Origin: an uncultured Gemmatimonadales bacterium
Lineage (GTDB): Bacteria > Gemmatimonadota > Gemmatimonadetes > Gemmatimonadales > GWC2-71-9
Direction: 5' to 3'
NCBI GenBank assembly: GCA_963730185.1
Contig: CAVSQW010000009.1
Location: 256,001-320,000 of the forward strand
DNA length: 64,000 nt
The position numbers were made by a program, and so were the translations under genes. Shown here piece by piece: positions 740-3,614 of the stretch. Positions within the stretch are counted from its first letter, which is position 1; each line of letters begins with the position of its first letter. The notes under the pieces are model-generated. The model saw only the letters and a list, made by a program, of their open reading frames with translations. It was not told the DNA's origin and searched no databases.

Positions 740-2113
740 CTAGCCTCCGGCCGGGTGCCGCTGGAGGATGGCGCGGACAGCGTCGCTCATCCGAAGCGCC
801 GGTTCGAGCGGGGGTGCGGTCGCGCCCGCCGCCAAGAGGGCCGCCACGGTGCCGGGATGGTCGCCCTCCTCCTTGTGCCACGCGTTGAGCGAGCCGTGGA
901 TCGCCCATCCGAGGGGCGTCCCTCCGAACTGCTGCTCGCGCACCTCGAGCGGCGCGCCGCGGCGGAGCAGGTCCTCGACCACGGCCAGGTCGCCGTGCCA
1001 GGCGGCCCAGTGGAGCGCCGTCTGGCCCTCGCCGCCCGAGGCCTCGACCGGCCAGCCTGCCTCGAGCAGGCGGTGCACGGCTCCGGGGTTCCGATTCTGG
1101 GCCGCGTCGGGCAACCGTCGTCGATCGGCCTCCGTCAGCGTCGCCGCCAGATTCGGGTGCCTGGCGCGGAGCCATCGCAGGGTCTCGTCGTCGCCGGCTT
1201 CGCAGGCGGTGGAGAGTTGGAGCGACGCGGGGCTGCGGTCGAGCAGCAGTCGGTAGGCGTCGAGGTGACCGCGTCGGTGGGCTGCCAGGTGCGGCGTGGT
1301 GTGCCAGCCCAGGGTCCAGATGTAGATCGATCCGCCGGCTCGCGGGTTACGGCGAGGGAACCATTCGTCGGACACGCTGATTCGGATGGCGTCGGGCTCC
1401 CGGTCGAGGAGGGCGCGCATCCGGCCCCCGTCGCCCAGGGCGGCCAGGAGCAGAAGGTCGGCCTGGCAGCCCCGCTCCACCAGATGCCGGGCGACGTCCG
1501 GGTGCTCCGACACGAGATACTGGGCCGGGGTCGACTCGTGGTCCACGTCGAGAGCGTCCAGGTCCGCGCCGTGTTCCAGCAACAGCTCGGCGATCTCCAC
1601 CGTGGCGGCGCGGTGCAGCGGCGTCTGGCCGTCTCCGCCCCGGGATCGGGCCAGCGCCGGCTCGGCCGCGAGCAGGGCCGCGAGCCGATCCGACCAGCCC
1701 AGTCGGGCCGCGGCGTGGGGAGTGAGGGTGGCACCCCGCTCGAGGAGATGCCGGGCGAGCTCCGGCGTGGCCTCGTCGAGCGCCGTGAAGCCGCCGGCCC
1801 ACCATTGGCTCCGGGCGTCGGGGTCGGCGCCGGCGTCCAGCAGCACGTCGACCAGGGCTCGGTCGTCTCGACTGACGGCCGTGTTGAGCGGCAGACTCCC
1901 GAAAGCGCCGCCCGGAATCGGCTGCCTGACCAGCCCCCGGAGGGATGCATGCCGGGTCAGGAGCTCACGCAGCCGAGGCGCGTCACCCTGATGAAAGGCG
2001 GCGATCACCTCCTCGAGCGCCGACGGGTCGCCCTGACGAAACTGGCGGAGCAGCTCCTTGGCCTGGGCCTTCAGATGGTCGAGATGGGGGCGAGACGGCA
2101 GGTCACGAGGCAC
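740..2113 (-). CDS. Ankyrin-repeat protein
   Basis: Repeated GQTPLHRAA / GQTALHWAAWHG / GGTPLGWA ankyrin motifs; N-terminal LPSRPHLDHLKAQAK; GTG start with SD GGGAGG. Confidence 0.9.
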   Translation of the reverse strand: MPRDLPSRPHLDHLKAQAKELLRQFRQGDPSALEEVIAAFHQGDAPRLRELLTRHASLRGLVRQPIPGGAFGSLPLNTAVSRDDRALVDVLLDAGADPDARSQWWAGGFTALDEATPELARHLLERGATLTPHAAARLGWSDRLAALLAAEPALARSRGGDGQTPLHRAATVEIAELLLEHGADLDALDVDHESTPAQYLVSEHPDVARHLVERGCQADLLLLAALGDGGRMRALLDREPDAIRISVSDEWFPRRNPRAGGSIYIWTLGWHTTPHLAAHRRGHLDAYRLLLDRSPASLQLSTACEAGDDETLRWLRARHPNLAATLTEADRRRLPDAAQNRNPGAVHRLLEAGWPVEASGGEGQTALHWAAWHGDLAVVEDLLRRGAPLEVREQQFGGTPLGWAIHGSLNAWHKEEGDHPGTVAALLAAGATAPPLEPALRMSDAVRAILQRHPAGG

Positions 2114-2241
2114 GATTCCTCCCTTGACGAGCCCGGTGTCCGCTGAGTCGGGCCCAAGAGAGGTTCACGCTCTGGGGCGATCGGGCACGGCACAGGAGGG
2201 ATCGTCCCTTTCCGCGGACTGGACGCAACCTGTCTTGCGCC
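2114..2241 (-). ncRNA. Candidate structured 5' leader RNA of the ankyrin gene (family not assigned)
   Basis: Three hairpins, two loop-mediated long-range pairings and an anti-SD segment; begins at the predicted TSS (see findings). Confidence 0.5.
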
Positions 2242-2246
2242 CCGGG

Positions 2247-2275
2247 AGTGTATCCGTGGCCGGGCGCCGAAGCAA
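2247..2275 (-). promoter_or_regulatory. Sigma70-like promoter of the ankyrin gene
   Basis: TTGCTT (2275-2270)-N17-TACACT (2252-2247) on the minus strand. Confidence 0.6.
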
Positions 2276-2378: not shown

Positions 2379-3614
2379 ATGGCAGGCGAGCGGAGCGTGG
2401 TGGTGATTGGTGCGGGGGCGGCGGGCCTGATGGCGGCGATCTTCGCCGCGCGGGCCGGCGCCCGGGTTCGCCTGCTCGAGCGGACCCGCGACGGCGGTCG
2501 GAAGATCCTGATCAGCGGCGGTGGCCGATGCAACGTGCTTCCGGCCCGACTCGATGAGACGAGATTCGTCACCGACTCGTCGCCGCACACGCTCCGGAAG
2601 ATGCTTCGCTCGTGGCCACTCGCCGATCAGATTGCGTTCTTCCGGGCCGACCTCGGGATTCCGCTCGAGGAGGAGATCGAGTCGGGCAAGCTCTTTCCCG
2701 TCTCCAATCGGGCCCGGGACGTCCGGGACGGGCTGCTGGCGGGCGCCGTCGGGGCAGGAGTGGAGTTCCTGCCGGATACGATGGTGACCGACCTCGAGCC
2801 CGGGCCGGGTGGATGGCGGGTGCACCGCCGAGGCGCGGCTCCAATCGGTGGCGACGCGGTGGTCGTGGCGACCGGGGGGCTCTCGGTCCCGAACACGGGC
2901 AGCGACGGCGAGGGACTCGAGGTGCTTCGTCGTCTCGGGCACCATCTCCACCCGACCTACCCGGCGCTCACCCCGATCACCACCGCCGACCCGCGCCTCC
3001 TCGCCCTCGCCGGGATCTCGTTGCCGGTGAGTCTCGCCGCCGAGGACGGTCGCCGCCGGGCGAGCGCGAGCGGGGGATTTCTCTTCACCCATCGGGGGTA
3101 CAGCGGGCCCGCCGTGCTGGACGTGTCGCACGTGCTCGTCCGAGCCCGCCTCGAGGGGCGCCTCGACGCTCGACTCCGGGTTCGGTGGGGCGCCCTGGAT
3201 CCACGGACGTGGCGCGAGGCCCTGGAGCCGACCGGCCGCGGGACGGTCGGGCCGGTGGTTCGGAGCCGGCTTCCCGACCGGCTCGCCGCGGTCCTGCTGG
3301 GGCTGGCCGAGATCGACCCCGGCCGCCAACTGGCTCAGCTCACCCGGGACCAGCGCCGCGGCCTGCTCGCGGTATTGACCGAGGCCGACCTTCCCTGGAC
3401 CGGTGACGAGGGCTATCGGAAGGCGGAGGTGACGGGGGGCGGCGTGAGCCTGACCGAGGTCGATCCGCGGACCTTGGAGAGCCGGCGGTGTCCGGGCCTC
3501 TTCCTCGCGGGCGAGGTGCTGGACGCCTTCGGTCCGATCGGGGGTTACAACTTTGCCTGGGCGTGGGCCACCGGTCGCGCCGCGGGTCAGGGCAGCGCGC
3601 GACCCAGTCCCTGA
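2379..3614 (+). CDS. HI0933/BaiN-family NAD(P)/FAD-dependent oxidoreductase
   Basis: VVIGAGAAG, GRKILISGGGRCN, ATGG, LFTHRGYSGP, AEVTGGGV, GEVLDAFGPIGGYN; start trimmed to ATG 2379 after GGAG. Confidence 0.92.
   Translation: MAGERSVVVIGAGAAGLMAAIFAARAGARVRLLERTRDGGRKILISGGGRCNVLPARLDETRFVTDSSPHTLRKMLRSWPLADQIAFFRADLGIPLEEEIESGKLFPVSNRARDVRDGLLAGAVGAGVEFLPDTMVTDLEPGPGGWRVHRRGAAPIGGDAVVVATGGLSVPNTGSDGEGLEVLRRLGHHLHPTYPALTPITTADPRLLALAGISLPVSLAAEDGRRRASASGGFLFTHRGYSGPAVLDVSHVLVRARLEGRLDARLRVRWGALDPRTWREALEPTGRGTVGPVVRSRLPDRLAAVLLGLAEIDPGRQLAQLTRDQRRGLLAVLTEADLPWTGDEGYRKAEVTGGGVSLTEVDPRTLESRRCPGLFLAGEVLDAFGPIGGYNFAWAWATGRAAGQGSARPSP

Follow-up and report, generated by a model that had tools for sequence, protein, structure and literature searches.

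The described systems closest to the element reported here are structured 5′ leaders of bacterial messages. In the SAM-II (RF00521), preQ1-II (RF01054), and preQ1-III riboswitches, a pseudoknotted leader contains the ribosome-binding site and no terminator is involved. The ZTP riboswitch (pfl motif, RF01750), which is associated with purine and folate genes, has two sub-domains, a variable linker, and a long-range pseudoknot. The E. coli rpsO (S15) pseudoknot and the leaders of ribosomal-protein genes include the translation start region within a structured, pseudoknotted fold, and in the fourU and ROSE thermometers a U-rich strand pairs with the Shine–Dalgarno sequence (SD) through many G-U pairs. 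Structural traits of these systems recur in a leader of ~125 nt found on the minus strand of a 64,000-nt stretch of DNA from an uncultured Gemmatimonadales bacterium (assembly GCA_963730185.1, contig CAVSQW010000009.1, positions 256,001 to 320,000; hereafter the window, whose first nucleotide is position 1). This leader lies directly upstream of a gene for an ankyrin-repeat protein.

Several differences separate it from the described systems. Compared with SAM-II, preQ1-II, and preQ1-III, the leader matches no Rfam model and is larger, with two domains and two pseudoknots; its SD is held by P3, an ordinary nested helix with predicted stability of its own, and its genes encode scaffold-type repeat proteins, not metabolic or transport functions. 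The ZTP riboswitch was considered as a candidate and rejected, since RF01750 matched neither the window (E ≤ 10) nor any of 7 homologous loci (E ≤ 1). The conserved sequences also differ, control would be exerted via the SD and not via a terminator, and the genes concerned encode ankyrin, leucine-rich repeat (LRR), and Clp_N proteins with unrelated neighbours. Like the autogenous leaders, the element is tied strictly to the gene of one protein family and is duplicated with each paralogue, but the N-terminal module of that family is not a known RNA-binding protein and has no known primary RNA target for the leader to mimic. Beyond what melting control in the thermometers needs, the leader has two covarying pseudoknots and a second domain that is large and conserved in sequence. 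The element is an uncatalogued class of a kind already described, that of structured leaders acting through the SD; what is unusual is its tie to a protein module that had no description.

A conserved fold around the Shine–Dalgarno sequence

The SD of the ankyrin-repeat gene lies in a helix that covaries and that belongs to a conserved fold at the predicted start of the message; the leader that adopts this fold is conserved over six phylum-level groups. The 5′ domain comprises hairpins P1 and P2 and a pseudoknot (PK1) between the P1 loop and the strand that follows P2. In the 3′ domain, helix P3 pairs an anti-SD strand (CCUCUCUUG) with the strand that holds the SD (CAAGGGAGG), and encloses hairpin P4. 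A second pseudoknot (PK2) joins GUCCGC, located between P1 and P2, to GCGGAC in the loop of P4 (Table 1). The original prediction, made from the letters of the window, had described a promoter-bounded, structured leader involving the SD, with two pseudoknots and without assignment to a known RNA family. All the strings that it named, and its 17-nt promoter spacer, are indeed in place on the minus strand, and the general description is borne out by covariation over 85 copies and by the conservation of promoter-like positions. Its sole missing helix is the main one, P3.

Taken alone, the window copy is only modestly unusual, with a minimum free energy (MFE) of −68.9 kcal/mol against −58.7 ± 4.2 for shuffled sequences (z = −2.44; 4 of 200 shuffles equal it), and it is conservation, not single-sequence folding, that raises the element above chance. 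A blastn search with the intergenic spacer in 201 genomes of the window's family returned the same ~65 nt (2256-2190) in other genera, for example in G182 (1.1e-9) and G109 (5.6e-7), with compensating changes visible by eye. When homologues of the ankyrin protein were taken from named metagenome-assembled genome records (79 loci), a motif search located the element directly upstream of many of them. Forty-eight distinct copies were aligned, and the structure was set by hand and then tested: 88.2% of the cells were paired, as against 41.6-54.2% with the partners slid. RNAalifold, applied to a MAFFT alignment, recovered 15 pairs only, corresponding to PK1 (as a nested helix), P2, and P4.

A covariance model (R1) was built from the nested helices only, with both pseudoknots left out. 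Its search of 95 sources gave 56 matches, including the window copy and 43 of the 79 homologue loci; after the addition of two phylum-wide searches, all 85 leader-carrying loci that were searched again were matched at E ≤ 1e-4. In the resulting 85-sequence alignment, 90.7% of 3029 cells pair, compared with 39.2-47.9% when the partners are slid by 1-3 columns. Compensatory changes on both sides are found in 27 of the 37 pairs, and none of 500 shuffles reaches any of five measures. The counts for the nested helices lean towards structure because the alignment was fitted to these helices, whereas those for the pseudoknots are independent of the fit since PK1 and PK2 are absent from the model.

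Support is spread over the whole fold. Compensatory changes occur in 4 of the 5 modelled pairs of P1, in 3 of 4 in P2, in 4 of 5 in P4, and in all 10 modelled pairs of P3, in which 84.7% of the cells pair. PK1 is paired in 88.2% of its cells and shows compensatory changes in 4 of 5 pairs, including a replacement of A-U by G-C in 17 sequences. The five core pairs of PK2 are invariant (84 of 84 sequences with letters) and, since they never vary among the 85 sequences, are uninformative either way. Its outer pair changes from G-C to A-U in 2 sequences, and an extension pair reads AU in 11, GC in 11, CG in 4, and UA in 3, being unpaired in 47. Two divergent copies add to this. One (L154:412-535, in G269:C5) scores 26.9 bits, precedes a strong module gene, and reads GUCCAC/GUGGAC, a compensatory change. 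The other (L005:2917-3050(-), in G020:C273) reads CCCGCG/CGCGGG at PK2 and has UUCACC/GGUGAA in place of P4, with the architecture kept. The variation at the outer and extension pairs and in these divergent copies favours PK2 as a genuine pairing, as judged from sequence comparison. Conservation across phyla reaches 97% or more in some 26 columns of the alignment, which cluster at GUCCGCGG, AGG, GCGGA, and the junctions.

The switching scheme of the original prediction fared less well. It had proposed that CCUCC acts as an anti-SD and that AGGUU pairs alternatively with AACCU. These two pairings are present in 61.9% of cells, compared with a shuffled mean of 62.1% (331 of 500 shuffles are as good), and the duplexes, at −4.4 and −4.7 kcal/mol, are no better with native than with swapped partners. 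The true anti-SD is the strand at 2163-2155, paired in P3 with 2126-2118. Mutually exclusive folds are without support, as all the conserved helices of the leader are mutually compatible. The P3 duplex itself averages −10.5 kcal/mol with native and −7.7 with swapped partners (an advantage of 2.76), and the native partner is better in 93% of sequences. The 3′ domain formed by P3 and P4 is predicted to be stable even without the pseudoknots (median ΔG −18.2 kcal/mol), and in the nested ensemble the predicted probability that the SD is unpaired has a median of 0.10 over the 85 leaders and is 0.15 in the window.

The leader RNA is predicted to begin at or just before P1, near 2241-2239, in agreement with the original prediction (near 2241). 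Among 75 distinct regions upstream of homologous leaders, 51 have a TANNNT beginning 9-7 nt ahead of the model start and 41 have a TTGNNN beginning 32-30 nt ahead of it; with a sigma-70-like promoter at this fixed distance the RNA would start at P1. The promoter reading draws on this positional conservation across homologues. The element always lies between the promoter-like site and the SD with its start codon, all on one strand, and the strand assignment follows mainly from this order; the excess of G-U over A-C cells is clear in P3 (128 versus 65), but is a weak strand test over all helices (166 versus 136).

No catalogued family accounts for the element. Within positions 1800-2700 of the window, the Rfam 15 search at E ≤ 10 produced three matches at the level of chance, which score 11.5-15.4 bits where the gathering scores are 45-55; in the 7 homologous loci, at E ≤ 1, a chance match to mir-567 was the only one and lay outside the leader. 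No ankyrin-associated bacterial RNA motif was found in the full-text literature covered, a coverage that does not extend to the supplements of PMC5737381 and PMC11109978. In the parts covered of the non-coding RNA discovery papers among the literature matches, the word 'ankyrin' occurs 0 times, and the supplement of PMC8632094 gave no match.

The window's genome carries one strong copy. Two samples of 151 genomes each were surveyed: in that of the window's phylum, 39 contain the leader (at most 5 copies in any one of them), and in that drawn around an Acidobacteriota-labelled genome, 13 do. These samples include genomes flagged as unpublished (G229, no match), and all the loci used come from published genomes. 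The records with leaders are labelled Gemmatimonadota, Acidobacteriota, Verrucomicrobiota, Candidatus Eisenbacteria, Haliangiales/Kofleriaceae (Myxococcota), and Tepidisphaeraceae (Planctomycetota). One match (L157, G182:C48:15722-15827; 30 bits) covers the 5′ half only, with P1, GUCCGCG, P2, and PK1, and has no gene with the N-terminal module behind it; it may be a remnant or another use of the 5′ domain.

Coupling of the leader to an N-terminal protein module

What the genes behind the leader have in common is an N-terminal module, of the form L-E-x-L-K-x-Q-A-K-x-L-L ... L-A-D-A-Q-x-x-x-A-R-E-Y-G-F-x-S-W, and not one C-terminal body. The strict module pattern is found behind 71 of 81 leaders, and 8 of the 10 misses, when read directly, turned out to be module variants. 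Eighteen proteins, many of them cut by locus ends, were scanned for their C-terminal parts: 15 have ankyrin repeats, 1 has LRR, and 2 have nothing above threshold. Module proteins of the Clp_N type also have the leader.

The coupling holds in both directions. In five genomes, the leader is directly upstream of all 15 module genes, and a module gene follows 15 of the 16 leader matches. The corresponding figures for the 151-genome sample are 59 of 67 module genes with a leader and 59 of 65 leaders in front of a module gene. This leaves 14 exceptions, five of which were fetched and four gave clear answers: two leaders do precede module genes (one case being a divergent subclass, the other a cut at a contig end), the leader of one module gene is divergent (26.9 bits), and one leader match consists of the 5′ half only. 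Among homologues of the ankyrin body that have no leader, the module is found in none of 31 (E ≤ 1e-3), as against 15 of 15 leader-positive controls, five loci with partial C-terminal matches only being left out of this check. One Planctomycetota-labelled genome contains both situations, an ankyrin homologue with neither module nor leader and a module gene with an 84.7-bit leader. The leader is thus placed strictly upstream of the gene of its presumed binder, as in autogenous systems. This strong co-occurrence supports the link, speculative in the original prediction, between the leader and a helix LPxRPxLxHLKxQAK at the N terminus of the downstream protein.

A locus labelled Gemmatimonadaceae (L051:2889-2998) has a truncated module (MPGDLPARASLEHL) that runs straight into the ankyrin body, preceded by a mere 10-bit trace of the leader; this looks like joint decay of both.

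The module, of ~75 residues, is predicted to fold as four helices (pLDDT 87). In the window, the profile built on module alignment A4 matches G000:C9:257967-258110(-) over positions 2-51 of 80 (E 5.7e-12), and the window copy has helices 1-2 only; Acidobacterial copies are without helix 2. The first predicted helix, which is rich in K and R, is the common denominator, and corresponds to the peptide flagged by the original prediction. Of 8000 proteins scored against the module profile, at least 4198 match it at E ≤ 1e-8. The genes that flank the leader-bearing loci are unrelated housekeeping genes: the neighbourhood is not conserved, and shows neither a metabolic or transport theme nor a conserved operon partner. 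In the cases examined, the leader is never upstream of a gene for an enzyme or a transporter.

What may act on the leader

With the SD inside P3, the leader would gate translation, and our tentative preference for the effector is the N-terminal module of the encoded family itself, in an autogenous feedback. By pairing with the SD, P3 would hold down translation of the downstream gene. The 5′ domain (P1, PK1, and P2), presenting GUCCGC, would dock on GCGGAC of the P4 loop through PK2, and this docking would stabilise the P3-P4 hairpin that buries the SD and set how firmly the SD is held. The effector would act on the docked core: module protein, once accumulated, would bind the docked fold and keep it closed. 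The module is ranked first because of its near-obligate coupling to the leader, of the scaffold-type nature of the products, and of the absent metabolic or transport context, the latter being unlike typical riboswitch regulons. The K- and R-rich first helix also counts in its favour.

A number of points weigh against this feedback. Leader and module are physically adjacent, as 5′ untranslated region and first codons, and this proximity could by itself account for their joint gain or loss. Since stability of the P3-P4 hairpin is predicted even with no effector bound, a repressor whose sole action is to close it might be superfluous, and activation by the effector is an equally good fit. No RNA-binding family or fold could be recognised for the module in the searches made: Pfam gave a sub-threshold match to the N-terminal part of Glyoxalase_8 in 8 of 17 sequences only, NCBIfam gave no family, the best hit of a PDB sequence search has an E of 0.041, Foldseek against PDB returned nothing below E 3.7, and a wide structure search with VIA-align had a best Z of 3.9, with none at 5 or above. 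These empty fold searches do not make the module fold new. As to the start of the message, a strict scan of 1900-2600 for consensus sigma-70 promoters and terminators found 0 promoter-like and 0 terminator-like sites, and TTGCTT and TACACT agree with the consensus at 7 of 12 positions only. Finally, there are precedents among riboswitches for rare classes that serve one gene family only, such as those of nadA, folE, and yjdF.

A new class of small-molecule or ion riboswitch is itself a possible, if doubtful, explanation. The docked double-pseudoknot core would bind a ligand and thereby stabilise (OFF) or release (ON) P3, and the module-bearing proteins would form the regulon that responds to this ligand. 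The ~26 near-invariant nucleotides shared across phyla, the compact fold of two domains in which the pseudoknots are long-range and a conserved helix contains the SD, and the regulon-like presence of up to 5 copies per genome all fit such a class, which is ranked close behind the feedback because the core is invariant and because adjacency could by itself explain the coupling to the module. Of what is usual for riboswitches, the covarying structured 5′ leader and the SD in a conserved helix are present, and genes pointing to one metabolite are not: in the cases examined, the leader precedes only one module fused to scaffold-type repeats, never an enzyme or a transporter, and the unconserved neighbouring genes give no pointer to a metabolite, which counts against this class. 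A possible ON state can be drawn, since the near-invariant purine run GGAAAGGGA (2205-2213) resembles an SD and could pair with the anti-SD at 2155-2163. However, capture of the anti-SD by the invariant segment GAAAGGGA has a mean duplex energy of −8.0 kcal/mol over the 85 leaders, versus −10.5 for P3, with almost no native-partner advantage (−0.63 kcal/mol; 55% of sequences) and no covariation support, and this candidate state, energetically possible as it is, was not retained. Less probable still is a separate, trans-acting RNA-binding repressor that would be titrated or recruited by the N-terminal peptide of the product, much as in the CsrA-FliW-flagellin partner switch or in the chaperone-coupled translation of exported proteins. 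It would explain the obligatory pairing of leader and module without any RNA binding by the module. CsrA sites combine a GGA in a hairpin loop with a GGA in the SD, and both elements are conserved in the leader, as GCGGAC in the loop of P4 and as GGGAGG for the SD. Yet CsrA (PF02599) exceeds the cut-off in only 3 of 5 leader-bearing genomes, and is not found in the window's genome (G000, 81.8% complete) or in G320. The covariation of GCGGAC in the P4 loop with GUCCGC suggests that this loop is engaged in RNA-RNA pairing instead, and no neighbouring gene for such a factor is conserved.

The leader may also work with no specific effector: it could sense temperature or another physical cue, in the manner of an RNA thermometer, or it could damp translation constitutively and stabilise the 5′ end, which would ensure low, steady translation. 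The U-rich anti-SD and the many G-U pairs of P3, the predicted closure of P3-P4 by default, and a structure that starts at the predicted 5′ end would all suit this role, but we consider it improbable: a hairpin would suffice for it, and yet a second domain, two pseudoknots, and ~26 near-invariant nucleotides are kept in six phylum-level groups. Scarcely any weight is given to the view that the element is not RNA at all, and that its conserved segments are DNA operator or promoter sites of a divergent gene pair, or chance pairings at high G+C. The leader does lie in a divergent spacer of 265 bp (2114-2378) with ~70% G+C, GUCCGC/GCGGAC is an inverted repeat in the DNA, and the single-sequence z is only −2.44. 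Against this, the divergent HI0933-like gene is not conserved beside the leader in other genomes, the half-sites are 70-100 bp apart across a linker of variable length, five other helices covary, and promoter-like site, element, and SD with start codon keep a fixed order on one strand.

Beyond feedback at one locus, it is possible, though doubtful, that leader and module are the two halves of one undescribed RNA-protein device, in which a helical domain of ~75 residues would recognise a double-pseudoknot RNA on its own message. If so, both a new RNA-binding domain and a new RNA class would be at hand, as the basis of family-wide translational feedback or possibly of a working ribonucleoprotein, and the proteins with this domain, adaptor-like and of the ankyrin, LRR, and Clp_N types, would number in the thousands in soil bacteria. 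A widespread, conserved RNA with two pseudoknots and no catalogued family belongs to the orphan kind that has yielded riboswitch ligands or RNA-binding domains. It offers a handle on a very large unexplained protein family, whose only common parts are the leader and the N-terminal module, and knowing what opens or closes the leader would show when these adaptor-like proteins come into use in soil bacteria of several phyla. With so short an RNA, and with an alignment that directly supplies the compensatory mutants, these ideas lend themselves to direct tests at the bench.

Features of the locus

The positions of the leader, of its helices, and of the genes around it are collected in Table 1.

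Table 1. Features of the leader and of the surrounding locus, in coordinates of the window
Feature	Position	Strand	Details
Whole conserved leader, R1 match	2118..2243	-	~125 nt; 100.1 bits, E ~1e-24
P1 hairpin	2223..2240	-	GCGCAA 2240-2235 / UUGCGU 2228-2223, loop GACAGG 2234-2229; 89.6% of cells pair
PK1, 5′ strand	2229..2233	-	ACAGG, inside P1 loop; partner 2196-2192
PK2, 5′ strand	2214..2219	-	GUCCGC, in near-invariant run GUCCGCGG; partner is the P4 loop
P2 hairpin	2197..2209	-	AGGGA-CGA-UCCCU (AGGGACGAUCCCU), 2209-2205 / 2201-2197; 99.4% of cells pair
PK1, 3′ strand	2192..2196	-	CCUGU; partner 2233-2229
Variable linker joining 5′ and 3′ domains	2164..2191	-	Length and sequence differ among copies
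P3, 5′ strand (anti-SD)	2155..2163	-	CCUCUCUUG; partner 2126-2118
P4 hairpin	2131..2153	-	GCCCG 2153-2149 / CGGGC 2135-2131; 97.4% of cells pair
PK2, 3′ strand	2138..2143	-	GCGGAC, in P4 loop; partner 2219-2214
P3, 3′ strand	2118..2126	-	CAAGGGAGG, holds SD GGGAGG 2123-2118; partner 2163-2155
GTG start codon of ankyrin-repeat gene	2111..2113	-	N-terminus aligns with homologues beginning MSRxLPxRP...
Module coding region	1964..2113	-	Module profile match; helices 1-2 only (VPRDLPSRPHLDHLKAQAKELLRQFRQGDPSA...)
Ankyrin-repeat gene (open reading frame)	740..2113	-	457 aa; Pfam Ank_2 1.5e-25, Ank 3.7e-23
-10-like hexamer TACACT	2247..2252	-	17-nt spacer after -35; positionally conserved
-35-like hexamer TTGCTT	2270..2275	-	String present; TTGNNN positionally conserved upstream of homologous leaders
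HI0933-like flavoprotein gene, divergent	2379-3614	+	ATG at 2379; Pfam 1.1e-67

In several loci labelled Acidobacteriota, a conserved hydrophobic open reading frame of ~116 aa overlaps the stop codon of the ankyrin gene behind the leader by 4 nt (ATGA). Seven copies were noted (L036:4464-4808, L047:2368-2715, L055:3972-4319, L034:1811-2158, L033:4464-4808, L066:3033-3386, and L071:4464-4811), with 51-58% identity to the first and no Pfam family. The product may be a translationally coupled membrane partner.

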